Assembly (NCBI GenBank): GCA_965242565.1 | Contig: OZ251457.1 | Coordinates: forward strand, 451,891-515,890 | Direction: 5' to 3' | DNA from: Dehalococcoidia bacterium | Lineage (GTDB): Bacteria; Chloroflexota; Dehalococcoidia; Bin125 | Length of the DNA stretch: 64,000 nt | Shown: positions 43,486-59,960 of the stretch, piece after piece | How the letters are laid out: the number at the start of each line of letters is the position of its first letter | Position numbering within the stretch: position 1 is the stretch's first letter | Notes under the pieces: model-generated | The model's database searches: none | What the model was told of the DNA's origin: nothing | Seen by the model: the letters and a program-made list of their open reading frames with translations, nothing else | Position numbers and translations under genes: made by a program

Positions 43486-43561
43486 GGGCCGGTAGCTCAG
43501 GGGTCAGAGCAGGCGGCTCATAACCGCTCGGTCGCTGGTTCGAATCCAGCCCGGCCCACCA
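43486..43561 (+). tRNA. tRNA-Met (anticodon CAT); elongator-type acceptor stem (G1-C72). A lysidine tRNA-Ile cannot be excluded
   Basis: Cloverleaf read by hand: GGGCCGG acceptor, GCTC/GAGC D-arm, anticodon loop CTCATAA, GCTGG-TTCGAAT-CCAGC T-arm, CCGGCCC-A-CCA 3' end; coordinates +/-2. Confidence 0.8.
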
Positions 43562-43582
43562 ACCCACCGCACGAACTCCCCC

Positions 43583-46500
43583 TCAGGCCGCCGACAGCCA
43601 CAACCCCGTCAGCGCCTCCGCCTGCTCGAGCACCGTGTCCGTCGCCCGCTCCTGCTTGTCGGGCGGGTAGCCGTGCTTGCGCAGCACCCGCTTCACCGCC
43701 GTCCGCAGCTTCGCCCGCACCGCCTCCCGATGCGCCCAGTCCAGCGACGCCGAGCCGCGCACCATCTCGACCAACTCCCGCGCGATGCCCCGCAGCTTCT
43801 CGTCGCCCAACACCTCCACCGCGCTCTCGTTGTCCGCCAGCGCGTCGTAGAACGCCAGCTCATCGTCCCTCAGACCGAGCCGCTCGCCCCGCCCCTCGGC
43901 CTCTCGCAGCTCCCGCGCCAGATCGATCAGCTCTTCGATCACCTGCGCCGCCTCCACCGCCCGATTCCGGTAGCGCAGCAGCGAACGATCCAGCAGCTCC
44001 GAGAAGTTGCGCGCCTCCACCACATTCTTCCTGCGCCGCGCCGCGATCTCCCCCTTCAGCAGCTTCTGCAGCAACTCCACCGCCAGATGACGCTGCGGCA
44101 TCCCCCGCACCTCCGCCAGAAACTCATCGGACAGAATCGAGGTGTCCGGCTTGCCCAGCCCCGCCGCGGCGAAGATGTCCAGCACCCCCTGCGACGCGAC
44201 CGCGTTCGAGACCAGCCGCCGCAGCGCGTAATCCAGCTCCTGATCGGCCTGCCCCTCCGCCGGCGAGCGCTTCGACAACGCCGTCCGCACCGCCTGGAAG
44301 AACGCCGCATCGTCGCGGATGCGCCGCGTCTCCTCGTGCGGCGCCGCCAGCGCGAACGCCTGCGTCAACTCCCGCACCGCCGCCAGACACCGCTCCTTCC
44401 CGTCCTCCTGCGCCAAAATGTGCTCCTGCGCCGCCGGCAGCAGCGCCAGACGCTGCTCCGCCGTCCCCCGCCGCCAGAGCGAGCGATCAAACCCGTGAAA
44501 CAGCCCCTCGCAAACCTCGTACTTCTCGACCAGCGCCGCCACCGCATCCTCGTGGTTCAATGTCGTCCGACCCGTCCCGCCGCTCTCCGTGTAGACCGCC
44601 AGCGCCTGCTTCAGGTCGTGCGCCAGACCCAAATAGTCCACCACCCGCCCGCCGTCCTTGTCCTTGAACACCCGATTGACCCGCGCGATCGCCTGCATCA
44701 GGCCGTGCCCCCGCATCGGCTTGTCCACGTACATCGTATGCAGACTCGGCGCGTCGAAACCAGTCAGCCACATATCGCGCACCAGCACGATCCGCAGCCC
44801 GTCTTCCGGATCGCGGAAGCGGTTCGCCAGCGCCTCGCGGCCCGCCTTGTTGCGAATATGCCGCTGCCACTCCGTCGGATCCGACGCCGAGCCCGTCATC
44901 ACCACCTTGATCTCGCCCGCCTCATCGTCCTCGCTGTGCCACTGTGGACGCAACCGCGTCAACTCCGCGTACAGCTCCACGCAGATCCGCCGACTCATGC
45001 AGACCACCATCGCCTTGCCCGACAGCGCCTCCAGCCGCTGCTCGAAATGCTCCACGATGTCCTCCGCAATCTGCCGCACCCGCGGCTTCGCCCCCACCAC
45101 CGCCTCCAGCTGCGACCAGCGCGTCTTCAGCTGCTCACGTTCCGCCGACTCCTCGCCCTCCGTGATCTGCTCGAAATTCGCATCCAGCAGCTCCCGATCG
45201 CCGCGAATGCCCAGCTCCACCAGCCGACTCTCGTAATAGATCGGCACCGTCGCCTTGTCCTCCACCGCCCGCTGAATGTCGTACACGCTGATGTAATCGC
45301 CGAACACCGCCCGCGTATCAGCGTCCCGCTTCTCGATCGGCGTTCCCGTGAAACCCACAAACGACGCCCGCGGCAGCGCATCCCGCATATGCCGCGCGAA
45401 CCCGTCGATGAAATCGTACTGACTGCGGTGCGCCTCGTCCGCTATCACCACGATGTTCCGACGCTCCGACAGCGCCGGCTGCTCCCCGCCCCCGCGCTCC
45501 GGAAAGAACTTCTGAATCGTCGTGAAAATCACCCCGCCCGACGCCCGCCGCAGCCGCGACCGCAAATCCGCCCGACTCTCCGCCTGCTCCGGCCGCTGCC
45601 CCAGCACATCCGCGCAGCGCGAAAACGTCGTGAACAACTGGCTGTCCAAATCGTTGCGGTCCGTCAGCACCACAATCGTCGGATTGCCCATCCGCGCATC
45701 ACGCGCTATCGCCCCAGCGTAAAACGCCATCGTCAGACTCTTCCCCGAACCCTGCGTGTGCCAGACCACCCCGATCCGACGATCCCCCCGCTCCCCGCCC
45801 GCGCGGCCCGTCTCGTAACGCCCGCCCGGCTCCGCGAAGCCCGCCTCCTCCGAAGCCCGCACCGTCTGCTCCACCGCGTGCCGCACCGCGTGAAACTGGT
45901 GATACCCAGCCAACTTCTTCGCCGTCGCCCCGCCGTCGTCCTCGAACACGATGAAATCGCGCACCAGCGCCAACAGACGCGACGGCTCGCACACCCCCTC
46001 CAGCAGCACCTGCAACTCCGGCATATGCGGATCATGCAGCCGCTCGCCCGAAATCGTCCGCCACGGCTTGAACCACTCCATCCCCGCCGTCAGCGTCCCT
46101 AGCCGCGCCCACACCCCGTCCGACACGATCAGTAACTCATTCATCGCAAACAGCGACGGCAACTCCGCCTGGTACGTCTGCAACTGCCGCCACGCCGCCC
46201 ACACGTCCGCCTGCTCGTCGGCCGGATTCTTCAGCTCGATCACCCCCAGCGGCAGGCCGTTCACAAACAGCGCGATATCGAGCCGCCGCAAGTGCTTCTG
46301 CTCCGACACCGTCAACTGGTTCACCGCCAACAGGTTATTCGCCTCCGCCTCCTCGAAATCGAGCGCCCGCGCCTGCGCCCCGCGCACCCGCCCCTCATCG
46401 TCGCGGTACTCCACCGGCACCCCGTCCACCAGCATCCGGTGAAACGACCGGTTGCGCGCCTCCGTCGTCGCCCCCGCCGGCCGCGTCAGCCTGGCCAACG

Positions 46501-46705
46501 CATCCTCCAGCGCCGAGTCCGGCAGCTCCGGGTTCAACTCCGCCAGCGCATCCCGCAGCCGCTGCTCCAACACCACATCCGAAAAATCCCCGCGCTCCGC
46601 CGTCCCCTCCGGCCCAAGCTCCGGCCCGTGCGCCGCCTCCCAGCCCAGACCGCGCAGCCAGCCCAGCGCCGCCGCCTCCACCGTCCCCTCATTGAACGCG
46701 CTCAC
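43583..46705 (-). CDS. hsdR: Type I restriction endonuclease subunit HsdR
   Basis: 1040 aa; helicase motifs ([10 protein letters not shown] Walker A, DEAH-like [10 protein letters not shown]); GTG start overlapping (GTGA) the stop of the upstream 140-aa gene. Confidence 0.9.
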
Positions 46706-47124
46706 GACCCGCCGCCAACCTGACAGGTGTAGGAGATGTCCGCCACCCGCACCGCGCCCAGCGCCACATTGAGAATCAGGAACGGTAGTTGGCCGATCTC
46801 CGTCGTCCGCGCGACCAGCTCCACCTCATCGCCTTCCAGCCGCAGCGAACGCCGCACATCGGCGATCAGCGACAACTGGTAGTCGGTGAGCTCGTCAAAG
46901 CACCGCGCGCGTCGCAGCCAGTCGTGCGCATCGCAGTAGTCGGTCACGACATACTCCCCGTCGCGCTCCAGAATCCAGACTTGCACCTCGTCGCAATCCG
47001 GGTAGAGCAGCGACGTGTTCACGCCGACTGCCCCGTCCGGCGCGGGGAAGAACTCGAACAGATCCGACGCCTCCAGGCGCATCTCCGTGCTCAGCGCATC
47101 CAGCAGGGCCGGTTTGGTCACCAT
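46702..47124 (-). CDS. Hypothetical 140-aa protein 'P1' (cassette gene, copy 1 of 3); no recognised domain
   Basis: [12 protein letters not shown]...[17 protein letters not shown]; paralogs at 47687..48109 and 48669..49091. Confidence 0.55.
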
Positions 47125-47600
47125 CTCGTGCCCCCTTCCGCTCCGTGCAGAATACCCCGATGCGTGAGGTTGATCTCTGCACAGAACTGCCGCCAGACCT
47201 CGCTTGGATCGCCGGCATCGGCTGTGATGTCCGGCGGGACATAAACCCACTGGTCGCCGAACTGCTCCGTCCAGCGGTGCTTGTGGACGCCGCGCGGGCA
47301 GTCGCAACGAAGTTTGGACACGCCAGTGCTGTCGCAAAGCGGGCCGTGGTGGACGACGCCGGGGCCCAGACAGACCCCGACCACTCGGCCTGCGCTCGGG
47401 TGGATTACGTGATAGCCCAGCGCCGCCGAAGCCGGCTTCCGCCAGCCGTACACCCGCAAGCCCCGATCAGGCGTCGAGCCGACGGCCGCCGTGAACCGCT
47501 GCGACCCGCGGTAGCCCGGTGCGAGCGTCCAGCGGATGTCGCCGACGATCTCCTTCGTCGGGTCGGCCAGCATTTCCGCGAACTCTTGCTCAGTGACCAT
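47118..47600 (-). CDS. Hypothetical 160-aa Cys/His-rich protein 'Q1' (cassette gene, copy 1)
   Basis: M(V/I)TEQEFAE(M/L)LADPTKEIVGDIRW ... HH.P.C ... RC.CPRG.HKHRWTEQF; its end overlaps P1's start codon. Confidence 0.5.
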   Translation of the reverse strand: MVTEQEFAEMLADPTKEIVGDIRWTLAPGYRGSQRFTAAVGSTPDRGLRVYGWRKPASAALGYHVIHPSAGRVVGVCLGPGVVHHGPLCDSTGVSKLRCDCPRGVHKHRWTEQFGDQWVYVPPDITADAGDPSEVWRQFCAEINLTHRGILHGAEGGTRW

Positions 47601-47609
47601 TGGGCAAGC

Positions 47610-47690
47610 TCAGCGCGCCGTCTCCCAGCCCAGACCGCGCAGCCGGCCCAGCGCCGCCTCCTCCACCGTCCCCTCATTGAACGCGCTCAC
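47610..47690 (-). pseudogene. hsdR 5'-end fragment (26 codons: [26 protein letters not shown]), copy 2
   Basis: About 90% identical to the first 24 codons of hsdR at 46705; GTGA overlap with P2, exactly as at the P1-hsdR junction. Confidence 0.6.
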
Positions 47691-48109
47691 AACCCGCCGC
47701 CAACCTGACAGGTGTAGGAGATGTCCGCGACGCGGACGGCGGCGAGCGCCACATCGAGGATCGCGTAGGGAATGTTCTCCACTTCCTGCACGCGCGCGAC
47801 CAGCTCCACGCCCTCGCCCTCCAGCGTGAGCGAGCGGCGCACCCCGTCGATCAGCGCCAGCTGCTCTTCAGTCAGCTCGTGGAAGCAACGCGCGCGGCGC
47901 AGCCAGTCGTGGCCCGCGCCGCGATCTGTCACGACGTACTCGCCGCCGCGCTCCGACACCCAGACCTGCACCTCTTCGCGATCCGGATAGAGCAGCCTGG
48001 CATTGACGCCCACATCGTCCGGCGGGACCGGGAAGAACTCGAAGAGATCCGTGAGCTCGACGCTCCGCGAGCTGGTCAACTCGTCGATCAGGGCGGGCTT
48101 GGTCGCCAT
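47687..48109 (-). CDS. Hypothetical 140-aa protein 'P2' (cassette copy 2)
   Basis: MATKPALIDELTS...[17 protein letters not shown]. Confidence 0.55.
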   Translation of the reverse strand: MATKPALIDELTSSRSVELTDLFEFFPVPPDDVGVNARLLYPDREEVQVWVSERGGEYVVTDRGAGHDWLRRARCFHELTEEQLALIDGVRRSLTLEGEGVELVARVQEVENIPYAILDVALAAVRVADISYTCQVGGGL

Positions 48110-48582
48110 GGTTCGTTCCCCTCCGGTTCCACCAGAATACCCGAGTGGGAGACATCGATCTCAGCGCAGAACTGCCGCCAGACGGCCGTCGAGTCGGTCA
48201 CATCAGCCGTGATGTCCGACGGCGCGTAAATCCACTGGTCCGCAAACTGCTCGGTCCAGCGATGCTTGTGCGTCCCGCGCGGGCAGGCGCAATGCCGCTT
48301 CCCCGCGCGGGTGTCGCGGCAGTCTGGCAGATGGTGGACCTCAATGCCCAGACAGAGCCCGACAATCCGCCCGACGCCCTCGTAGATGACCGAGTAGGAG
48401 AGCCGCGCAAGACGCGGGTTTCGCCACGCTTCAACCCGCAGCGGCCAATCGGACTGCGAGCGCACGTGCGCAGTGAACTCGTGCGCGCCGGGATGAGATA
48501 TGCTGGCCGCCCACCGAATGTCGCCGACGATCTCCTTCGTCGGGTCGGCCAGCAGCTCGGCGAACTCTTGCTCAGTGATCAT
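48088..48582 (-). CDS. Hypothetical 164-aa Cys/His-rich protein 'Q2' (cassette copy 2)
   Basis: About 55% identical to Q1 with the same Cys/His spacing; 22-nt overlap with P2. Confidence 0.5.
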   Translation of the reverse strand: MITEQEFAELLADPTKEIVGDIRWAASISHPGAHEFTAHVRSQSDWPLRVEAWRNPRLARLSYSVIYEGVGRIVGLCLGIEVHHLPDCRDTRAGKRHCACPRGTHKHRWTEQFADQWIYAPSDITADVTDSTAVWRQFCAEIDVSHSGILVEPEGNEPWRPSPP

Positions 48583-48591
48583 TGGGCAAGC

Positions 48592-48672
48592 TCAGCGCGC
48601 CGTCTCCCAGCCCAGACTCTCCAGCCAGCCCAGCGCCGCCGCCTCCACCGTCCCCTCATTGAACGCGCTCAC
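48592..48672 (-). pseudogene. hsdR 5'-end fragment ([26 protein letters not shown]), copy 3
   Basis: Same junction structure as copy 2. Confidence 0.6.
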
Positions 48673-49091
48673 GACCCGCCGCCAACCTGACAGGTGTAGG
48701 AGATGTCCGCCACCCGCACCGCGCCCAGCGCCACATCGAGGATCGCCGTCCCCACATCGTCGACATCCGTCACCCGTGCGACCAGCTCGACGCCTTCGCC
48801 TTCCAGCACCAGCGAGCGTCGCACCTCGCCGATCAGCGCCATCTGCCGCTCGCCCAGCTCCTGAAAGCACCGCGCCTTGCACAGCCAGAGCCAGGCGTCG
48901 CCGCCGTCTGTCACCACGTACCCGCTGTCCTGCTCCGTCACCCAAACCTGCACCTCATCGCGATCCGGGTAGAGCAGCGATGTGTTCACGCCGACCGACC
49001 CGTCCGGCGCCGGGAAGAACTCGAACAGGTCCGAAGCCTCCAGCCGCACCCCCGCAGCCAGCGCATCCAGCAGAGCCGGCTTGGTCGCCAT
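48669..49091 (-). CDS. Hypothetical 140-aa protein 'P3' (cassette copy 3); only a 50-nt remnant of its Q3 partner survives, overlapped by the rloC-like 3' end
   Basis: [14 protein letters not shown]...[17 protein letters not shown]; upstream remnant ...[19 protein letters not shown] matches the Q1/Q2 C-termini. Confidence 0.55.
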   Translation of the reverse strand: MATKPALLDALAAGVRLEASDLFEFFPAPDGSVGVNTSLLYPDRDEVQVWVTEQDSGYVVTDGGDAWLWLCKARCFQELGERQMALIGEVRRSLVLEGEGVELVARVTDVDDVGTAILDVALGAVRVADISYTCQVGGGS

Positions 49092-49139
49092 CTCGCGCCC
49101 CTTCCGGTTCCCACAGAATACCCCGATGCGTCACGTTGA

Positions 49140-51524
49140 TCACCTCGCAGAGCTGCCATCAGGCGGTGATCGGCTGATCTGCGTCTGTTGCGGCTTGGCG
49201 AACTCGAGAACGCGTTCAACGAAGGGCCTCAACTCGCCGTCCGAGGGCCTCTCGTCCGCGTGCTGCTGGTTTGAGTCATGATGGAACCGATGAGCGTACG
49301 TCATGAGCTCATCGAGCTCGTTGATCTGTTGCGCCGACAGGATCGGACTTCCGTGTTTAGCGCGCCTCTCGCACTCCTTAATGAACCGACCAAACCTTTC
49401 TCCCGGGCCGAAGTCGCCCGGGCAAGTGACGCGGAGGTAGTGTTCGAGGTAGGGGCGCAACGACTTGGCGACTGCCACCAAATCATCGTCGTCTGTCTCC
49501 AGGTACCGCGTCAAACGCAGATACGTTCGATCGTGATCTGTGATGAGGTCGTTATTGACATCCCACGGCCTCAGAGAGGAACCGTCGCTGCTCCGCGCGA
49601 TCTTGATTGCCGACCGCGATTCCCGGTAAGGGCGACCAGCAGTCTCCCAGATGTCGCACAGGAACCTCTTGTTGTGAGACAGTACGATCACCTGCCCGAC
49701 ACGGTCGAGAAGACCAGCGATCTCCGACACCGTCACCGAGAATCGGCTGGTGTCGAGACTGGAGATTGGGTCATCCATCACGACCGTCAGGTCGCTAGGA
49801 TTGGGATCAAGCTCGATCGCCACCAAGAACATCGAGAACGCCAACGCGTTGCGGTCACCTGCGCTCAGAGTATTGCCGAAGGAATACTCACCCGCAGGCA
49901 CGTCCTGGTTCGTGATGGGCACGAGCTTTCCGTTGATTTCGAGTGCGTAAGTTGTCGTCGGACCGCCCGTCTGGCGCGGCTTGAGGGACTTTACTCGAAA
50001 GCCGGCACCAAACCGACTCAGGTGGTGGTTCAGCCTCTCCTCGTATTGCGGAAAGATCTGATTCCGGAAAGCAGCGAGAGCTTGACTGGCGCGTTTTTGT
50101 TCGTCATTCGTTCGCGATTTGGCTGCGCTTTCGTTTAGGTAAGCGACGGCCAGGTCGACGATGTCCGGAGAGTAGCGCGCCTGAACTGCAGTTAGCCGCG
50201 CTATCTCGTCTTTGATGGTGCCGGCGTTCGTGGACGCTGCTTGGTCGAGGAAAGCCGCGATCGTGGTGTTGGCCCGCTCGATTGTGCGGTTTGCGGAGGT
50301 GACGCCCGCTCGAAGCTCGTCATAGCGAGCAAGCGCGACGCGAGCCTCGTCATCGATGGTGAGGGTGTCGAGTGGTGCAGCCTGTTTCGTGCGAAAGTGG
50401 CGGATGATCGCGGTGTAGGCCTCGTCCCACGCGCCAGCAATCGCTGGAGCGTCGACTTCGATCAGATCGACCTCACACACTTCACGCCAAAACCGCATGC
50501 GCTTGGTGGTTTCGGTCACTGTGCGCTCGAACGCGGTCTGAGCCTTTCGGCCATGTGTTTCATCGATGTGGGTTCGTTCGTCTTGGATCGATGATTTCAG
50601 GTCGCGATAGGCGGCGCTGAAGTAGGAACGGTAGTGCGCGAGCATTACAGACGAACCAATAGCCTGCAAGCAGAAGGGGCACGTCGCTACATCGTCAGCC
50701 TGCGCCGACTGTTGTAGGTACGTTGTGCCTTGGTCTAGCCACCGCTCGCCGTCCTCGCCAAGTTCATCCGCGTGGTCAGCAATTTGTTTTGCGGCATCGG
50801 CGTCGAGTTCCGATATGTCGCGACGCAAAACACGCTCTATCTCGTTGAGATCGAAAGTGGCGGTCGAGAGTCGCCCGGGCGTTGGTGCTTTGCTGATTTC
50901 GTCAGCGCGTTCTGCCGCTGCCTGTAGCTGGCGTTGATGGCGAAGTGCATCGTCGACGTTGAGCTCGTCGGTGAGGTTGCAGAAGCGTTCGATCGCGTCG
51001 CGGCCAGCGAGCGACGACCGAAGGTCGGCAGGAACGGCGTCACGGATCTGTTCCTCCAGCCGGCGTAGCTCTGCGTTGTGCTCTTTCAGCCGGTCGTTCG
51101 TTCGCTGGACGGTTCGATTCAGGCTGACGCCTTGCTCGCCCAGGATGAGTTCGTGGAGAGCTTGCCTATGGGCGTTGTGGACCTCAAGGCCAGAGCAGAC
51201 ACTTTCAGCGACAAACTGTTCATCGAAGACCTTGAGCGACGTCAACGGCGGAATTTTCCAAGCACCATCGGCGAATACTGCGCCGCCCTCTTCGCCCCGC
51301 AGCGTGATCACGACCACCGGCGGGTCACTCACGTCGATCCGTTGGCGCTCGACGATCGCTGTTGCATTGCCCTTGGCCAACGACCGAAGGACCTCGGAGA
51401 GAGTGGTCTTACCACGGCTGTTATCGCCGTAGATCACGGTCAGCCGTTTCAGGGGAAGCGAGGCACCGTCGGTCACAGCCTTGAATTGGCCGATGTTGCC
51501 GAGGAAATCAATTGTCTCTAGCAT
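49140..51524 (-). CDS. AAA_13-type ABC ATPase with a coiled-coil CxxC zinc hook; RloC-like (putative anticodon nuclease family)
   Basis: Walker [10 protein letters not shown] near the N-terminus; long helical middle containing [12 protein letters not shown] (CxxC); signature-like [11 protein letters not shown]; Walker [12 protein letters not shown]; 794 aa; embedded in a type I R-M locus; low GC. Confidence 0.5.
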
Positions 51525-52828
51525 TGTGAGACTCTCCCTGTGGACTCTTGGATCTCTCCGGCAGTCGCCAGCAGTTGTCGCGACAGCGAGTTGCGGACGA
51601 CACTGATCGCCGCCGTATCGGTCCCTGCCTTCGTCGCCCGGGCGATCAAAGGGCCGACCTCAGCCGCGAAGCGAGAAGAGGCTGGGGTGGGCGGAACGGC
51701 GACGACATAAGACGCGACCGCAGCCGGCGGCACGCGCTGCCGCCCGCTCGTGCCGGTCATGCTCTGGATGGCGAACTCGCGGAACGGCTCGCTCCGAGCG
51801 AGGCAGTAGGCGAACTCCGGCGGCAGCGGCGGCTTGGGTCGCAGCACGATGTACTCCGTTGAACCCCAGCCTACCTGACCATCCTCCAGAAAGTCCACAT
51901 AGGCCGTCTTCCCGTTCTCCAGGCACGGCGTGATCCGCGCCACGAGCGTGTCGCCGTTGATGAAGCGCGTTCCCGAGCCGAACGGCCGCTCCGTCACCGC
52001 GTGCGGCACGTGCCCGTGCGTGGGCATGTCCGCCATCGCCAGGTGCGGCGCGGCCTCGCCCTTCTTGAGCGACCGCCTCGGATTGACCTCCACCACATCC
52101 CCAAGCGCGGCCACGCGCCAGCCGGCGGGGATGGGGCCGAGCGCCGACGCCTCCAGGCGCTCGGGGAACGCCTCGTAGAGCTGCGCGGGCAGCCCCGGCA
52201 GCGACTCCCCCGAGCGCCAGCGGCCCTCCTGCTTCGCCCGCACCGGCTCGAAATCCACAAACCACGAGCGAAACAGCGCCCGCGCCATCTCCTCCAGCGT
52301 CCCCGCCATCCGACGGTTCAACTCAATCTTGTCATCCAGACACCCCAACACCCCCGCAATCCGCCGCTGCTCCCCCATCGGCGGCAAGCGCAGTTTGATA
52401 CTTTTGAGCGCCGTGCCGGACAGCTCGCGGAACGTGGAACCCGACGAGTGCCGCTCCAGTTCTTCGGTGTTCACCGAAAGCCAGTAGTACAGGTATTCAC
52501 CGAATGCACCGTCGCGAGGAATCAGCGACCGGAAGCCCTGATTGGTCGCGATCGGGTTCTTGGCGATCGCGACGTATCCAACGGGCGCTCGCGTTGAGAG
52601 CAGTACGGCGCCGGCGGGCAAAAGCTTGGCCGAACAGCTGTCGAGTCCCTGTTGCGTGAGATTCCGCTCCCCGCGAGCAATGTAGCGATCATGCGGCCCC
52701 GAAAGGTCTTTGGGCGTCACCCACGGTATGTCGCCGCCGAAGTTGTCAGGGTCTTTCGTTGACGGCGTAGAGCCGCCCACGATGTCGGCGATCTCGCCGA
52801 TGGTCACTTCAGTCCAGCTAGCCGTCAT
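51518..52828 (-). CDS. hsdS: Type I R-M specificity subunit HsdS (two target-recognition domains)
   Basis: 436 aa; two TRD halves separated by the central conserved helix ([24 protein letters not shown]...); C-terminal conserved helix. Confidence 0.8.
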
Positions 52829-53109
52829 TTGAACTCCTCGTGATCGGGCGTCCGCATGAGCGCGAGGACATCGGCTCGCTCATACTCCACATCGCGCTTC
52901 GCAGCGACCGAGCCGTGGCGTCCGAAGAACCAGTCGCCGCCGGTGTCGAGCTCGACGTTGAGCACGCGAATCCGCTCAGCCGCCACATCGTCGAAGCCGT
53001 CCTCGTACCCGTTGACCACGACGCGCATCCCGCTCGGATACTGCGAGAGGTGCTCGATCAGTTCGCCCACCGTCATCATGGCGCATCCCTCGGATGAGGC
53101 GCTCCCCAT
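52825..53109 (-). CDS. Small hypothetical protein (about 84-94 aa) between hsdM and hsdS
   Basis: Start trimmed to MGSASS / MMTVGEL so it does not overlap the upstream ORF; ATGA overlap with the hsdS start. Confidence 0.35.
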
Positions 53110-53185
53110 CGCAGCGTCGCTTGGAACGACTTTACCACGAGACACAGAATTGCGGTCGTGGACCTCCTCGTTCGGACCGACGCAG

Positions 53186-54160
53186 TCATGCGAACTTGAC
53201 CCAAGGTCCTGGGAAGCCTTGCTTCGGAAAGTCCATCGGTGGTTCCTCGCCGCGGGCCTTGCCTTCGAGATCATCGATGGCAGCTAGGTAGCTCCCTCTA
53301 CCCGACATGCAGAGCCAAGGTTCTGGGCCGATCACGTCGCCGTTCGCTGCAACGTACATCTGAGACAGGAGCCTCCTGAGCTCGCCGAACGCTTGCTCGC
53401 TCCGTTGCCAGCCTGTAGGCCGTGCGGACTGTAGACGAAACCCGTTGTCGTACACGACGCTGACGGTCGCCCAGAGCTCGTCCGTCTCTTCATGGACCAC
53501 TGGCTCCGTGCGGAGAGAGACGATCTTTGGAGCTGGATGGCGAGTGCGCATCTGGTCGGGAATGCCAAGGTCGGTCCAGCGGGCTATGCGATAACCAGAG
53601 GCTGTTTCTGTGGGGAAGATGCCCATGCAGCCGATCTGGTGTGCGAGGTCGAGGACATGCCGTGTGCTGAAGATCATCTGCTCCCCAGGTTCGAACCAGC
53701 GCAGAACTTCGCACTTGCCGCAATGCTCTTTCGTGGCCTGTCCGTGGGCATGGATGAGGTCGTTGCGGATGTGACGCAGGTCGTTCATCACGTTGATCTG
53801 CGGAGGGATGCCTACGGGACCGACAGCGGCTTTGAACTGCGGCCGGAATCCATGTTCCCAGCGGCTGTAGACCTCGACGATCCATGCGCGGTAGGCGAAC
53901 TGTTCCACTGCACCATCCCGCTCGAGATCCTCCAGCGGATGACGGTCAAGGACATCTGGTTGACAGTCCAGGTAAGACGGCTTCAGCGGGACGCGCATAC
54001 CGGCGTTTAGCGTTTCCGGAGTCATCGTGCTGTACCACTGCCGCTGTTCGTCGCGCACAAACTCGAGGCCGTGGAGAGTTGCGAAGAGATGACGGGTCGC
54101 TCTTGTGATGTCGTAGTAGAGCATCCCTATCTCCTCTCTCATTCGCTGCTCGTCAGCCAC
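53186..54160 (-). CDS. Hypothetical 324-aa protein with a HEPN-like Rx4HxH motif (RHIRNDLIHAHG)
   Basis: Motif read from the translation; lies between hsdM and hsdS, where Abi/HEPN genes are commonly embedded; low GC. Confidence 0.4.
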   Translation of the reverse strand: MADEQRMREEIGMLYYDITRATRHLFATLHGLEFVRDEQRQWYSTMTPETLNAGMRVPLKPSYLDCQPDVLDRHPLEDLERDGAVEQFAYRAWIVEVYSRWEHGFRPQFKAAVGPVGIPPQINVMNDLRHIRNDLIHAHGQATKEHCGKCEVLRWFEPGEQMIFSTRHVLDLAHQIGCMGIFPTETASGYRIARWTDLGIPDQMRTRHPAPKIVSLRTEPVVHEETDELWATVSVVYDNGFRLQSARPTGWQRSEQAFGELRRLLSQMYVAANGDVIGPEPWLCMSGRGSYLAAIDDLEGKARGEEPPMDFPKQGFPGPWVKFA

Positions 54161-54317
54161 GGCATCCTCCTTTCTGTTCGTGAGACACGCCGAGGCGTGC
54201 TACGCGGGTCATGACGCCACCTCGCAACAGTACAGCGTTGACTGGCAGATCGCACGGATTTGCGACCTGCCAGATCGGAATGTAGCGCAGGCAACATCAC
54301 CAGTTGTCATTGGCCTT

Positions 54318-55874
54318 TCACTTGCCACCCTCCGCGGGGAAGCCGAGCGACTGCAGATTGGCCTCAATCTGCGCATCGAGCCGCGCCGCCTCAGCCTGCT
54401 GCCCGCGCCACTGCGCCGCCAGCCGCCCCATCTTCTCCGCAAACGGCTCGCCGTCGTCCGCCTGCGGCTCCACGCCCACGTAGCGCCCCGGCGTGAGCAC
54501 GTAATCCTGCGCGCGCACCTCGTCGAGCGACGCGCTCTTGCAGAAACCGGGCGCGTCCTCATACGCGCCGGCGCCCTCCTCCCCTCGCCATGCGTGGTAG
54601 GTATCCGCGATGCGGCGGACATCCTCGTCGCTCAGATCGCGGTGCGTACGATCCAGCATGTGCCCCAGCTTGCGCGCGTCGATGAACAGTATCTCGCCGC
54701 GCCGGTCGCGCATCCCGCCGCCGTGCCGCCGTCGCGCCAGAAACCACAGGCAGGCCGGAATTTGCGTGGTATAGAAGAGCTGCCCCGGCAGCGCCACCAT
54801 ACAGTCGACCAGATCGTTCTCGATCAACCGTCTGCGGATCTCCCCTTCGGCTGATTGCGCCGTCGACATCGAGCCGTTGGCCAGCACGAAACCGGCCACG
54901 CCGCGCGGCGAGAGGTGATGCACCATATGCTGCACCCAGGCGAAGTTGGCGTTCTTGGCCGGCGGCGTCCCCCAGCGCCAGCGCTTGTCCGCGCTCAGCT
55001 GCGCCGCGCCCCAGTCCATATTGAACGGCGGGTTGGCCAGGATGAAATCCGCCCGCAGGTCCGGATGCCGATCGTTGAAGAACGTATCGCCCTGCGCGAT
55101 GTTGCCGTCGATCCCGCGAATCGCCAGATTGATCTTCGCCAGCCGCCAGGTCGTGTAGTTCGACTCCTGGCCGTAGATCGAGATATCGTTCTGCGCGTCG
55201 CTCGGCGACTTGCCGCCGTCGCCGTTGCCCGTCGCGTGCGCGCGGATGAACTCCACCGACTGCACGAACATCCCGCCCGATCCGCAGCACGGATCGTACA
55301 CCCGCCCCTTGTATGGTTCGAGCATCTCGACCAGCAGCCGCACCACGCTGCGCGGCGTGTAAAACTCGCCGCCCCGCTTGCCCTCCGCGCTCGCAAACTG
55401 CGCGAGGAAGTACTCGTACACGCGCCCCAGCACATCGGTCGAGCGCGCGTCCTCGGTGCCGACCGCGATGTTGCTGATCAGGTCGATCAGCTGCCCCAGC
55501 CGCCGCTTGTCCAGCGCCTCCCGCGCGTAGTCTTTGGGCAGCACGTCCTTGAGCGACGCATTGTCGCGCTCGATGGCCAGCATCGCCTGGTCGACGGTCG
55601 TTCCGATCGTCGTCTGCCGCGCCGCCCGCTGCAACACCCGCCAGCGCGCCTCTTCCGGCACCCAGAACACGTGCTCCCCGCGATACTCGTCCGGGTCTTC
55701 CGGATCGGCCCACTCTTCGTGTTCCAGCTCGGCGCGGCGCTCCTCGAAGGCGTCCGAGATGTACTTGAGGAAGATCAGGCCGAGCACGACGTGCTTGTAC
55801 TCCGCGGCGTCCATACTGCCGCGCAGCTCGTTGGCGGCCGCCCACAGATCGGCTTCGTGCTGATTCGCGCTCAC
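54318..55874 (-). CDS. hsdM: Type I R-M DNA methyltransferase subunit HsdM
   Basis: HsdM N-terminal domain ([34 protein letters not shown]); SAM motif [10 protein letters not shown]; catalytic NPPFN; GTG start overlaps (GTGA) the stop of the upstream aminotransferase. Confidence 0.85.
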
Positions 55875-57055
55875 GACGACACCTCCCGCAGCGCCGCCGC
55901 AAACCCCGCCGCAGCCCCCTCCAGCTCCCACTGTTCCACGCAGTAGGAAATCCGGAAATGCCCCGGCATCCCGAAACCGCGCCCCGGCACCACCAGCACC
56001 CCGTGCTCCTGAAGCGCCTCCACCATCCGCAGCTCATCCTCCACCGGCGACTGCGGGAACATGTAGAACGCCCCCTCCGGCTTGCGCACGCTGTAGCCCG
56101 CGTCGGTCAGCACGCCGTACAGATAGTCGCGCTTCTTCTGGTACTGCCCCACATCGATCGTCGCCTCCTGGAGATTGCGCACGAGGTGCTGCATGATCGC
56201 CGGCGCGTTGACGAAGCCCAGCACGCGGTTACAGAAGATGAAGGCGTCCATCAACTCCGCGCCGCCCTCGTACTCCGGATGCAGCGCCAGATAGCCGATC
56301 CGGTCGCCCGCCAGCCCCAGGTCCTTGGCGTGCGACGTCACCGTAATCGTCCGCCGGTACGCCTGCTGCGGAAACGGGTACTGCTGATCGTCGTAGATGA
56401 TCTTGCGGTACGGCTCGTCGCTGACCAGAAAGATGTCCGTACCGAACCGCTCGCACGCGCGATCCAGCAGCTCCGCCAGCGAGTCGATCACCGAGCGCGG
56501 GTAGATCGCGCCCGACGGATTGTTGGGCGAGTTCAGGATCACCAGCCGCGTGCGCTCGCTCAACCTCTCCTCCAGCTCCGCCAGATCCGGCGTGAAGTCC
56601 TCGCCGCAGCTGATCACCACCGGCTGCGCGTCGCGCCCCAGAATGTAGAACATGTACTCGCCGAAAAACGGCGTGAGGATCACGATCTCGTCGCCCGGGT
56701 TGCAGAGCGCGCGCACGATCACGTTCAGCGCCGCCGCCGCGCCCACCGTCATCACGATGTTGTCCGCGCGATAGCCCAGCCCGGTTTCCACCGAAAGCGC
56801 GTCGGCCACGGCCTGGCGCGTGTCGGGATAGCCCGCGTTGGGCATATAGCGGTGCGCGCCCGGCTGCGGCGTCTCCGCGAAGCGGCGCAGCTCCTCGAAA
56901 AATTCCGGCGGCGGCTCGGCCACCGGATTGCCCAGCGAGAGGTCGAACACGTTCTCCGCCCCGCGCTCCGCTCTCAGCGCGATGCCCAGCTCGAACATCC
57001 GCCGAATCCACGAGCTGTCCTCCATGTGCCGTTGTACGTCCGTTGCGATGGTCAT
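55871..57055 (-). CDS. Class I/II PLP-dependent aminotransferase
   Basis: 394 aa; [11 protein letters not shown] motif; PLP-lysine context [16 protein letters not shown]. Confidence 0.8.
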
Positions 57056-57176
57056 GGCGCTCTCCGCGTCGTCGTATCGAGTGCTGTGCGCAGCTGCCGG
57101 CGGCTCATTGATACGCTCCCCCCGGCAACGCGAGGGTATCCGACGCCGCCTGGGGCGTCGCCGGTCGGAGGCCGCG

Positions 57177-58283
57177 ATGCGCTCGTTCACGCGAGAAGAA
57201 ACGCGCCTGCTGCGTCTCGATGCGCAGGGCCTGGGCGAACTGGGTGCCAGCCGCTGGGCGACGCCGGCCGAGGTCGCTCGCGGCTGCGGCGGCGTCCAGT
57301 CGCAGGATCGCATCGGCGGCCTGCTCGCCTTCCGCGCCCGCTCCTCGGGGCTGACCGCCGCGCAGGTCGAGCGCGCGCTGTTTGAGGAGCGCTCCATCGC
57401 CCGCACCTGGCTGATGCGCGGCACCCTGCACACCGTCGCCGCCGCCGACCTCCGCTGGCTGCTCGCCCTGCTCGGCCCGGAGATGGACCGCAAGGCGCTC
57501 AAGCGCCGCGCCGACCTCGGCATCGACGACGACATCCGCGACGCCGCGCTGGCAACGATGCGAGCGGCGCTGGCGGGCGGCGCAACGCTGCCCCGCGCGG
57601 AACTCGTCGAGCGTGTGCGCGAGGCCGGGCTGCCCTCCGAGGGCCAGGTCGTCCCTCACCTGCTGCGCGCCGCCTCAATGCGCGGCCTGATCTGCTTCGG
57701 GCCGACCCAGGACGGCGCAGAGACGCACGCGCTGCTCGACGACTGGCTGGCGGACATCGCCGACACCCAGCCGCCTGATCCCGGAGCCGAACTCGCCCGC
57801 CGCTACTTCGCCGCCTACGGCCCCGCAACGCAGGCCGACTTCCGCTTCTGGTCGGGCCTCTCCGGCGCCGACGCCCGCGCCGCCTTCCGCGCCATCGAGG
57901 ACGAACTCGAAGAGGTCAAAGCCGACGGCAAGCCGATGTGGATGACGTCCGGCCGCGACGCGCCCGCCGACGCGCCGCTCTCCGTCCGCGTGCTCGGCCC
58001 GTTCGACCCCTACGTGCTCGGCTACGCGAAGCGCGAGCTGGGCGCGTCCGAGGATGCACTGCGGCTGCTGCACCGCGGCGGCGGCATGATCCCGCCGATC
58101 GTGCTGGCCGACGGCGTGCTGGTCGCCGTCGCAACCCGCCGCCGCACCGCGAGCGGCATGCGCTTCACGCTCAACCCCGTCGCCCGCCTCACCAGTCAAA
58201 TCCGCGCCAGCCTCGACGCCGAACTCGCCGACATCGCCCGTTTCCTCGGCGAACCCGCGACTTGGGAGGTGGAGTCGGCCTAG
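57177..58283 (+). CDS. Winged-helix DNA-binding domain protein of the YcaQ/AlkZ (DUF1006) family (putative crosslink-repair DNA glycosylase)
   Basis: Length and conserved ...RTWLMRGTLH... and GPFDPYVLGY segments, typical of this family. Confidence 0.5.
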   Translation: MRSFTREETRLLRLDAQGLGELGASRWATPAEVARGCGGVQSQDRIGGLLAFRARSSGLTAAQVERALFEERSIARTWLMRGTLHTVAAADLRWLLALLGPEMDRKALKRRADLGIDDDIRDAALATMRAALAGGATLPRAELVERVREAGLPSEGQVVPHLLRAASMRGLICFGPTQDGAETHALLDDWLADIADTQPPDPGAELARRYFAAYGPATQADFRFWSGLSGADARAAFRAIEDELEEVKADGKPMWMTSGRDAPADAPLSVRVLGPFDPYVLGYAKRELGASEDALRLLHRGGGMIPPIVLADGVLVAVATRRRTASGMRFTLNPVARLTSQIRASLDAELADIARFLGEPATWEVESA

Positions 58284-58397: not shown

Positions 58398-59960
58398 ATG
58401 CCAGACAGACGATTGCTCGAACTGTGGGGCCAACTCCAGGGCAAGAAGCCGCACTACGCCCACTTTCTGACTGAGGTCAGTCTGGCGAACATTCGCGGGA
58501 TCACGGACCTGCGGGTGCTGTTGGACTACCCAGTCAGCGTGATCGCCGGCGGCAACGCGAGCGGCAAGACCACGGTCTTGCTGGCGGCGGCATGTGCATA
58601 CCGTGTTCCCAACGCAGGCGTGAAAGACTTCGTGCCCTCAACGTTGTTTCCGGATTATCGACCGAAGGTCGGCGAGCGGGGAGATGAACGCCGGACGGTG
58701 ACGATTGACTTCGATTACGCCACGCCAGAGGGCCGACGCGCGATGCGTTGGCGCCGCGCGAGAAGCTGGAACCGCAGCTTCTTTGGCCGACCGGGGGGGC
58801 GCCAGCCGACCCGCCGAGTCTACCTGCGCACGCTGAGCAACCTGGCCAACCCGTCGGAAGTTCGCGGTGTGCTGGGCATGTCGCAGGCAACGACCGCACC
58901 GAACGAACAGCCGCTGACGGCGTTGCAAATCGACTTCGCCCAGAAGATGCTGCCGTTTCGTTACTCGGAAGTCGTTGACCTCACCAGCGGGCGAAAGAAT
59001 CTGCTGTTCGCCGCCCAAGAGGGCGGCGCCGCATACTCGGAGCTGCACATGGCGGCGGGTGAGCGCGCGATCCTCCGGCTGTCGCAGGAAATCGCCCAAC
59101 TGCAAGGTGCGCTCGTGCTGATCGATGAGGTGGAAGCCGGCTTGCACCCGTGGGTGCAGCATCTGCTGATGCTCCACCTGCAAGAGCTGGCTTTGCGTAA
59201 TGAACTGCAAGTCGTCGTCACCACGCACAGCCCGGTCGTGCTCGACTCGGTGCCTCGGAACGGCCGTATCTTCCTGGAGCGCGTCGACGATGGTTCGGTG
59301 CATGTCAGGCCGCCGTATCGCGATGTCGTGCAGAACGCGCTCTACGGGCGCTCCGACGACGCGCTCAACATCCTCTGTGAAGATGAGATCGCCGAGGCCA
59401 TGCTGCACGGTGTCTGCGACCGTGTCCTGCGGGCCGAACGAATTCGCCCGGAAACGGTCCGCATCGGGCGCGACACGGGAGCCGATGAGTTCCCGATGCA
59501 CGCGGCGGCCTTTCGCAAGTTTGGACAGATCGAAAACTTCGTGTTCGTTCTCGACGGTGACCGCCGCGACAGCGCGGTTGTGGATCGCGTGAAGAGCGAA
59601 GCGGGAAGCGCATTCCCCGTGCTCTTTCTGCCCAGGCGAGAGGCCCCGGAATGCTGGGCCTGGGAACGCCTTTCGGCATGCGTGGACGATCTGGCCGGGC
59701 CGCTCGGCATCGCCGCGGCCGACCTGCGCGATCTGCTCCGCCTGCAAGATCAAACCTACGCGTCGGCTACGGACAAGCCCGGCGAGATCGCCAAGGCGAA
59801 GCTGCGCGCGATCGGCGACCAGACCAATCGCTCCACAGCTGATGTCTGTCGTCACGTCGCCGCATCTGAAACCGATAAAGCGGACAGCCAAATCCAGCCG
59901 CTGGTTGCCGGGCTGCGCTCGGCGATCGAGGCTTGGCGCGCTGAGCGTGGCGGTTCCTAA
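58398..59960 (+). CDS. OLD-family nuclease (N-terminal ABC ATPase plus C-terminal TOPRIM), stand-alone (class 1)
   Basis: Walker A GGNASGKTT; signature-like MAAGERAILRL; Walker B LVLIDEVEAGLHP; H-loop TTHSP; TOPRIM-like E (ILCEDEIAE) followed by DGD (FVFVLDGDRRD). Confidence 0.6.
   Translation: MPDRRLLELWGQLQGKKPHYAHFLTEVSLANIRGITDLRVLLDYPVSVIAGGNASGKTTVLLAAACAYRVPNAGVKDFVPSTLFPDYRPKVGERGDERRTVTIDFDYATPEGRRAMRWRRARSWNRSFFGRPGGRQPTRRVYLRTLSNLANPSEVRGVLGMSQATTAPNEQPLTALQIDFAQKMLPFRYSEVVDLTSGRKNLLFAAQEGGAAYSELHMAAGERAILRLSQEIAQLQGALVLIDEVEAGLHPWVQHLLMLHLQELALRNELQVVVTTHSPVVLDSVPRNGRIFLERVDDGSVHVRPPYRDVVQNALYGRSDDALNILCEDEIAEAMLHGVCDRVLRAERIRPETVRIGRDTGADEFPMHAAAFRKFGQIENFVFVLDGDRRDSAVVDRVKSEAGSAFPVLFLPRREAPECWAWERLSACVDDLAGPLGIAAADLRDLLRLQDQTYASATDKPGEIAKAKLRAIGDQTNRSTADVCRHVAASETDKADSQIQPLVAGLRSAIEAWRAERGGS

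Follow-up and report, generated by a model that had tools for sequence, protein, structure and literature searches.

What is the gene that lies between hsdM and hsdS in the type I restriction-modification (R-M) operon on contig OZ251457.1 of a Dehalococcoidia bacterium, and does it act together with the small gene that follows it? The stretch of DNA that was analysed, referred to here as the window, is 64,000 nucleotides (nt) in length, and all coordinates count from window position 1. The gene in question, an open reading frame (ORF) of 324 amino acids (aa) designated ORF324, had been placed between hsdM and hsdS by an original prediction, and this placement is confirmed at positions 53186-54160 of the minus strand. 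The same prediction had read a HEPN ribonuclease (RNase) motif in the product and had joined the gene with a short downstream ORF into a two-gene abortive-infection (Abi) or toxin-antitoxin-like module. The results described here lead to a different account. ORF324 encodes a member of a large, conserved and unannotated family of two-domain proteins, whose N-terminal domain is probably a divergent member of the HEPN superfamily, and the gene is a discrete cassette, which strains have acquired, lost or kept irrespective of hsdM, hsdS and the small ORF.

A conserved two-domain protein family

ORF324 starts with a GTG codon, which is preceded by AAAGGAGG, and both this gene and the small ORF are real genes under purifying selection, the dN/dS values against their sister-strain orthologues being 0.10-0.28 for ORF324 and 0.13-0.38 for the small ORF. 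No match to ORF324 was found in Pfam, NCBIfam, PADLOC or PHROGs. A first, word-indexed search retrieved 20 homologues, none of which carried a name or a Pfam domain, and a full profile search recovered 903 representative clusters (50% identity) at E<=1e-3, with 127 of them at E<=1e-30. The relatives from this search are mostly 300-340 aa in length and they align with ORF324 from end to end. Where the genome records name the organism, the relatives come mostly from metagenome-assembled genomes (MAGs) of Dehalococcoidia/Chloroflexota, Candidatus Spongiisociaceae, Candidatus Palauibacter, Longimicrobiales and Marinacidobacterales, and based on the organisms as named in these MAG records the family may be found chiefly in uncultured Chloroflexota and other symbionts of the sponge type. 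A tblastn search of ORF324 against phage genomes gave no match, Pfam scans of longer and possibly fused family members (P0082, P0078, P0120 and others) revealed no informative partner domain, and literature searches for the ORF324 family and for HEPN proteins in sponge symbionts returned nothing specific.

In the AlphaFold2 (AF2) model of the full-length protein (predicted local distance difference test score, pLDDT, 87; predicted template modelling score, pTM, 0.86), in which the limits of helices and strands were assigned by DSSP, the polypeptide divides into two parts. The first is an N-terminal helical domain (aa 1-180; 53621-54160, minus strand), which appears HEPN-like from the model and from weak HEPN profile matches, and the second is a C-terminal alpha/beta domain (aa 181-324; 53189-53620, minus strand), which is conserved throughout the family.

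The N-terminal domain and its relation to HEPN

When modelled alone, the N-terminal domain has a pLDDT of 92.8 and a pTM of 0.87, and its main helices span residues 2-44, 84-113, 123-137 and 166-176. The sequence RHIRNDLIHAHG, which corresponds to residues 129-140, contains the Rx4H motif R132-N-D-L-I-H137 (53750-53767, minus strand) at the C-terminal end of helix 123-137. The original prediction had taken a HEPN motif from this one protein, and at that level its occurrence does not exceed chance, as shuffled versions of ORF324 contain Rx4H in 66% and Rx4-6H in 96% of the trials. However, the motif becomes meaningful because it is conserved across 114 diverse members of the family, on which all conservation counts given here are based: R132 is present in 113/114 of them, N133 in 102/114, D134 in 96/114 and H137 in 93/114 (with K in 14), and the pattern [IVLM]R[NHDQ]x3H is matched by 140 of the 166 family members that were retrieved. 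The conserved arginine is thus R132 and not R129.

Three features of the HEPN superfamily have been described (PMC3710099, Anantharaman et al. 2013) with which this motif can be compared. The residue following the motif arginine is typically N, D or H; the Rx4-6H motif terminates the third main helix, just ahead of a loop; and a second acidic residue, typically within Ex3[KR], is located on helix 2. Judged from the AF2 models and the alignment, all three of these features are found in the ORF324 family. The arginine is followed by a polar residue, the motif closes main helix 3 (123-137), after which a long loop leads to helix 166-176, and the counterpart of Ex3[KR] is E102-x3-R106 (53843-53857, minus strand) on helix 84-113, which precedes the motif helix, with an acidic residue at position 102 in 96% and R or K at position 106 in 88% of the members. 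Residues D127, C150, W155, F156 and H168 are likewise nearly invariant. Further, when the 114 members were scanned singly, HEPN models were the sole named families that recurred among the weak matches. These sub-threshold matches comprise HEPN_RiboL-PSP of Pfam in 4/114 members (best E 0.0019, 17 bits against a cut-off of 28), HEPN_Apea of Pfam in 1/114 members (E 0.15), the CARF_HEPN model PDLC01834 of PADLOC in 7/114 members (best E 1.7e-4), and other weak PADLOC matches to three more CARF_HEPN models and to RTasHEPN. One example of a match of this kind is that in member P0075, where the region matched by Pfam (residues 161-219) contains the motif R210-H215 of this protein.

Several observations weigh against the assignment of this domain to HEPN. 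No curated threshold was reached in Pfam, NCBIfam or PADLOC, the NCBIfam results being empty, and phmmer and profile searches against PDB sequences found nothing. A profile search with the N-terminal domain, aimed at bridging to HEPN proteins annotated in Pfam, returned only unannotated ("hypothetical") members of the same family. Foldseek searches of PDB with the full model and with the N-terminal domain alone yielded no structure of a HEPN protein and no match with E below 0.1; the matches obtained (full model against PDB and BFVD, N-terminal domain against PDB) were at chance level only, e.g. TolQ, a STAT coiled coil and Erf/Rad52. In ORF324 a long insert occurs between main helices 1 and 2, whereas in typical HEPN domains the insert is between helices 2 and 3; H137 is replaced by K in 12% of the members; and the nearly invariant Cys150-x4-Trp-Phe that follows the motif is no known HEPN feature. 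In addition, the role in defence, the activity as an RNase, the dimeric state and the autoinhibition proposed for this protein below are features that we infer from context.

The same observations can be read as indicating that ORF324 is no nuclease, and that its N-terminal domain is a mimic of the HEPN motif or a silent binding domain of a regulator or adaptor, serving e.g. R-M or mobile-element functions. For this interpretation speak the lack of a significant match to any HEPN protein by sequence or by structure, the frequency with which Rx4H arises by chance in one sequence, the absence of H137 from 18% of the members, and the additional invariant residues C150, W155, F156 and H168, which suggest another or an additional site. 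However, E102, R106, R132, N133 and H137 are jointly conserved at positions typical for HEPN, the recurrent weak matches are specifically to HEPN models and come from two independent libraries, and the gene is found in mobile or defence islands. Based on these considerations, we regard a non-nuclease function as unlikely. Membership of the N-terminal domain in the HEPN superfamily is considered probable and not demonstrated, and it is based on motif geometry and on convergent weak matches; similarly, the domain is termed a probable rather than a proven new HEPN family because no curated threshold was reached and Foldseek did not retrieve a solved HEPN structure. The HEPN-like reading of the original prediction is therefore upheld as regards the motif, its position on the helix, the Ex3R counterpart, the recurring weak HEPN matches and a confidently modelled helical domain around the motif, but not as regards any curated cut-off or a HEPN structure in Foldseek.

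The relation of ORF324 to individual HEPN families merits comment. The best sub-threshold profile likeness, around the R-N-x3-H helix, is to HEPN_RiboL-PSP (PF18735) and to the CARF-HEPN proteins (Csm6/Csx1-type); however, ORF324 has neither an L-PSP nor a CARF domain and outside the motif it is unrelated to these proteins. With the AbiD/AbiF Abi_2, AbiJ and ApeA-HEPN proteins it shares the plan of a stand-alone gene in which a HEPN-like catalytic module would be fused to a sensor-type domain, and like these single-protein HEPN Abi effectors it is located in defence or mobile islands and at times inside R-M operons. It differs from them in showing no detectable sequence kinship and in its domain order and accessory domain. 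Neither ORF324 nor any of the 114 members matched a Pfam or PADLOC Abi model, including that of Abi_2 (AbiD/AbiF). Identification of ORF324 as an Abi_2 protein, as PrrC or as a HEPN-MNT toxin was considered and rejected, the defining features of these proteins being absent.

The C-terminal domain

The C-terminal domain is beta-rich in the AF2 model, with strands within residues 181-252 and helices at 255-266 and 287-302. Conserved residues in the 114 members are S215, R217, N/D239-G240, G274 and Y291, and no relative of the domain was found in PDB or BFVD. Residues 213-266 (53363-53524), which form a beta-beta-beta-alpha arrangement, gave repeated Foldseek matches to Erf/Rad52 phage proteins in BFVD at E 0.03-0.15. 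This resemblance is not significant, and it could at most be a hint of nucleic-acid binding by the modelled domain.

ORF324 as an independent cassette

In a blastn comparison of the window with sister strain L005, the homology ends at 54331 and restarts at 53091, and the intervening 1.24 kb (53092-54330, minus strand), which comprise ORF324 and both of its spacers, are represented in L005 by 80 bp of unrelated sequence. The GC content of this indel cassette is 59.9% as compared with 67% in its flanks. The original prediction had described both ORFs as low in GC, and this holds for ORF324 (GC 59.9%, GC at third codon positions, GC3, 69.8%), whereas the small ORF (63.5% and 83.5%) is close to hsdS (66.4% and 81.7%). 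For hsdM the values are 67.3% and 88.4%, and the mean GC of the window is 68.5%. Of the two ORFs, only ORF324 is clearly foreign in its composition.

The contigs of the sister strains share flanking aminotransferase and AlkZ-like genes, and the content between these genes varies. In L003 the architecture is as in the window, with an ORF324 that is 81% identical and an AAA_13 protein that is only 28% identical. L005 contains hsdM, the small ORF, hsdS, an AAA_21 ATPase and hsdR, and is without ORF324. In L007 a 3' stub of hsdM is followed by ORF324 (97% DNA identity) and a truncated small ORF, beside a convergent N6_N4_Mtase/ResIII system. In L008 the ORF324 homologue is split and the small ORF is present, and hsdM and hsdS are missing. 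In L001 an ORF of 344 aa (ORF344, 64% identical) precedes a remnant of hsdS and a ThsB_TIR gene, and the small ORF is lacking. The homologue of ORF324 is therefore retained in L001, L007 and L008 despite the loss of hsdM and/or hsdS, and it is due to the differing content of these five strains that ORF324 is regarded as an independent cassette.

The distribution of the genes in these strains also bears upon the two-gene module of the original prediction, in which ORF324 would be a toxin and the small ORF its antitoxin or partner, inserted together into the R-M operon. In the window, L003, L007 and L008 one gene directly follows the other on the same strand, and small partners are frequent for HEPN toxins (PMC3710099). 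However, L005 has kept hsdM, the small ORF and hsdS in the absence of ORF324, L001 has a homologue of ORF324 but not the small ORF, and among approximately 25 loci of distant ORF324 homologues there was no relative of the small ORF and no conserved neighbour. The two genes are separated by 106 untranslated nt, and the ATGA overlap, in which the TGA stop of the small ORF meets the hsdS ATG, couples the small ORF with hsdS; the coupling noted by the original prediction thus exists, but it does not involve ORF324. Their base compositions are unlike, and relatives of the small ORF are phage genes or are found in CRISPR operons that lack an ORF324 relative. Similarity to HEPN-MNT and other HEPN toxin-antitoxin pairs is limited to the presence in the window of a HEPN-like motif and an adjoining small gene; an MNT or other cognate antitoxin is lacking and the small gene does not co-vary with ORF324. 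Because of this distribution across genomes the two-gene module is largely refuted, and we consider it highly improbable. The pair occurs in one strain lineage and at one chromosomal hot spot only.

A separate question is whether ORF324 depends upon the operon in which it is found. That HEPN genes lodge in R-M operons, as the original prediction stated, is established, R-M linkage having been described for at least 16 HEPN clades (PMC3710099). In a PrrC-like arrangement, HsdM/HsdS would hold ORF324 inactive and would release it when a phage blocks the R-M enzyme. The location between hsdM and hsdS is the same as that of prrC in EcoprrI (PMC3710099), and the identical architecture of L003 is in agreement with such a role. 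Like PrrC-EcoprrI and RloC, ORF324 is a putative HEPN-type RNase gene among hsd genes and probably a second line of defence. However, it differs from PrrC and RloC in having no ABC ATPase or P-loop domain (the neighbouring AAA_13 protein has one), in the N-terminal rather than C-terminal location of its nuclease-like domain, in its unrelated C-terminal domain, and in that most of its relatives are not linked to R-M genes. Further, the majority of the family members stand alone, at a distance from any R-M gene, ORF324 persists in strains that lack hsdM and/or hsdS, the gene appears to bring its own upstream control region, and the operon already contains a PrrC/RloC-like protein. Dependence of ORF324 on the operon is thus very unlikely.

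The upstream control region referred to above is suggested by conserved DNA that travels with the gene. In an alignment of the upstream regions from five strain loci, an invariant GCTGTACNGT block (54227-54236, minus strand) is located about 67 nt upstream of the ORF324 start, within the spacer of 157 nt between hsdM and ORF324, and this block and the conserved DNA around it accompany the gene in all five loci (viz. the window, L003, L007, L001 and L008). It is a candidate promoter or operator of ORF324 itself. The same spacer contains an inverted repeat of 13 bp with a 6-nt spacer (54242-54273; arms 92% complementary; RNA fold z-score -2.5), both arms of which are altered alike in L003 (ATCTG to ATCAG). 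From its sequence this repeat looks more like paired protein-binding half-sites than like an RNA hairpin. Its interpretation as an RNA terminator was rejected, as it has no U-tract and its arms change in parallel in L003. A scan of the cassette for sigma-70 promoters and intrinsic terminators found nothing, such a scan being of little value in a high-GC organism.

Genomic settings of distant homologues

The linkage of ORF324 to R-M genes is limited to one lineage, and the general setting of the family is in mobile or defence islands. No neighbouring gene family was common to 19 genome loci of ORF324 homologues, and none of the annotated distant loci lies within an R-M operon. In these annotated loci the homologues are solitary genes with long upstream gaps; beside them are, among others, transposases, integrases, PIN-PhdYeFM pairs, ThsB_TIR, AAA_15/21 ATPases and a GmrSD-like gene, and some of the homologues are in ordinary metabolic surroundings. 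In some genomes or samples there are two copies from the family (L032/L033 and L017/L018), which are located in duplications of 8 kb and 2.8 kb, the longer of them bordered by transposase and integrase genes. Further, plasmids of Rhodococcus encode proteins of 217 aa resembling the N-terminal domain, which match ORF324 residues 91-172 (E 5e-8), and their genes adjoin integrases, IS30, a Swt1-HEPN gene or an NYN-plus-methylase pair.

That the family might consist of selfish passengers or addiction genes of mobile elements, which confer no benefit in phage defence, is suggested by the multiple copies in duplicated segments flanked by transposases and integrases (L032/L033 and L017/L018) and by the foreign base composition. 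However, ORF324 is under purifying selection and the family is repeatedly placed in defence islands. A purely selfish gene is hardly probable on these grounds, and a selfish origin and a role in defence are in any case compatible with each other.

Proposed role of ORF324

The account that we prefer, and which we hold with a confidence only somewhat above even, is that ORF324 is an autonomous, horizontally acquired single-gene cassette, encoding a self-contained RNA-targeting effector of second-line defence. The N-terminal domain (about 180 aa) would represent a new, divergent HEPN family with a predicted metal-independent RNase site formed by E102, R106, R132, N133 and H137. The family-specific C-terminal domain (about 140 aa) may sense an infection cue, or it may autoinhibit or otherwise regulate the N-terminal domain. 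The cassette would have landed between hsdM and the unit formed by the small ORF and hsdS, and its product would be an effector of the abortive-infection type, self-controlled via the C-terminal domain and probably dimeric like other HEPN RNases. It would provide the operon, in addition to its type I R-M enzyme and its RloC/PrrC-like AAA_13 protein, with a layer of defence that targets RNA, a role which agrees with the multi-pronged R-M and HEPN strategy that has been described (PMC3710099).

If this prediction is true, a sizeable family of proteins that are "hypothetical" in all current annotation resources would become a new family of HEPN-type RNases with a new accessory domain, and it would extend the list of known RNA-targeting second-line effectors of R-M operons and defence islands, above all for uncultured marine lineages that have been little studied. 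In that case the window would exemplify a compact, layered immunity, in which a type I R-M system, a RloC/PrrC-like nuclease and ORF324 are combined in one operon at a strain-variable hot spot.

The small ORF

The small ORF, for which the original prediction gave about 90 aa, is 84 aa in length (52825-53079, minus strand, with its ATG at 53079), and this is also the length of its close homologues. A mechanical version of 149 aa was rejected, as it overlaps the end of ORF324 and the homologues are of 84 aa. The statement that neither ORF has another recognisable domain is correct for both of them in Pfam, NCBIfam and PADLOC, but the small ORF has a weak match to phrog_7217 in PHROGs (E 4e-4, 21.5 bits, residues 2-51). 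Its close homologues (>=79% identity) are few and its distant ones abundant: tblastn located relatives in T4-like cyanophages and plasmids, and there were 385 in metagenome contigs and at least 105 in viral contigs of IMG/VR. The weak phrog_7217 match is supported by these phage, plasmid and metagenome relatives, and the median GC of their loci is 38%. The small ORF shares the family signature GYE-G-x2-D ... G-x-H with hundreds of phage and metagenome relatives; unlike its phage counterparts, it belongs to a type I R-M operon of a bacterium, where it is coupled to hsdS.

The downstream sequence was long enough to be checked in 105 phage-like loci, and in 31 of these an RNA ligase of the T4 Rnl1 type (tRNA-repair) is present 0.4-2.8 kb downstream of the small-ORF relative on the same strand. 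These ligases match Pfam PF09511 at 40.6 bits and are 35-100% identical among themselves. In two cyanobacterial plasmids the relative of the small ORF lies within CRISPR-Cas operons. The small ORF is an independent gene, translationally coupled to hsdS, of a family of small proteins that occurs mainly in phages, and a function as the dedicated antitoxin of ORF324 can clearly be rejected. The occurrence of its relatives upstream of an RNA ligase in phages and within defence operons (type I R-M and CRISPR-Cas) in bacteria hints at a regulator or decoy acting between defence and counter-defence. A tempting but incorrect toxin-antitoxin annotation is corrected, and a phage-type small protein which recurs in defence operons is brought to notice. 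Two further and separate proposals, viz. that ORF324 is an unrecognised single-gene anti-phage system, with a HEPN-like N-terminal domain and a new C-terminal sensor, and that the small ORF is a domesticated copy of a common phage protein, are rather doubtful when taken together.

Other genes of the operon and of the surrounding region

The type I R-M operon is complete, with hsdM, hsdS and hsdR all on the minus strand. It is flanked by a class I/II aminotransferase gene (55871 to about 57100, minus strand). The methyltransferase gene hsdM (54318-55931, minus strand) is identified by N6_Mtase (4.5e-108) and HsdM_N (3.1e-28) of Pfam and MTase_I of PADLOC (6.9e-211); the limits given are those of the longest ORF and the real start is probably slightly downstream. 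The specificity gene hsdS (51518-52828, minus strand) matches Methylase_S of Pfam (1.2e-38) and Specificity_I of PADLOC (6.4e-116). The operon ends with the restriction gene hsdR (43583-46705, minus strand), whose product contains the Pfam domains HSDR_N, SWI2_SNF2, T1R_D3-like and T1RH-like_C.

The end of hsdS is overlapped by the gene for an AAA_13 ATPase of 794 aa (49140-51524, minus strand; Pfam AAA_13 6.5e-44; PADLOC PDC-S06 1e-71 and PrrC 1.7e-5). The protein contains a CPFC motif and, in its C-terminal part, a PrrC/RloC-like region with R-x3-E-H ... H-x2-HHD, and it is a putative second HEPN-type nuclease of the operon, RloC/PrrC-like in character. With a GC of 59% the gene is as foreign as ORF324, and its slot is occupied by a 28%-identical variant in L003 and by a 604-aa AAA_21 protein in L005. 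Between this gene and hsdR is a tandem array (46702-49091, minus strand) in the order DUF1828, DUF6978, DUF1828, DUF6978, DUF1828. Single DUF6978-DUF1828 pairs are present beside R-M or ThsB_TIR genes in L001, L003 and L007, and DUF1828 alone in L008; the array may be a further accessory module.

Between the aminotransferase gene and the opposite border of the R-M genes (about 43500-57500), at which a DUF192 gene is located in L001, L005 and L008, the DNA forms a defence hot spot that varies from strain to strain. Depending upon the strain, it is occupied by type I R-M genes with different ATPases, by the convergent N6_N4_Mtase/ResIII system, or by a ThsB_TIR/8xMP set. Upstream of the hot spot, tandem repeats of PaREP1 (PF05942) alternate with Pro_CA carbonic-anhydrase genes in 2 to 3 copies (L003 1398-2917; L005 488-3074; L008 1593-3109). 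Beyond the hot spot an ORF of 520 aa (58398-59960, plus strand), with the P-loop GNASGKTT, looks like an ATPase of the AAA_21/OLD type.

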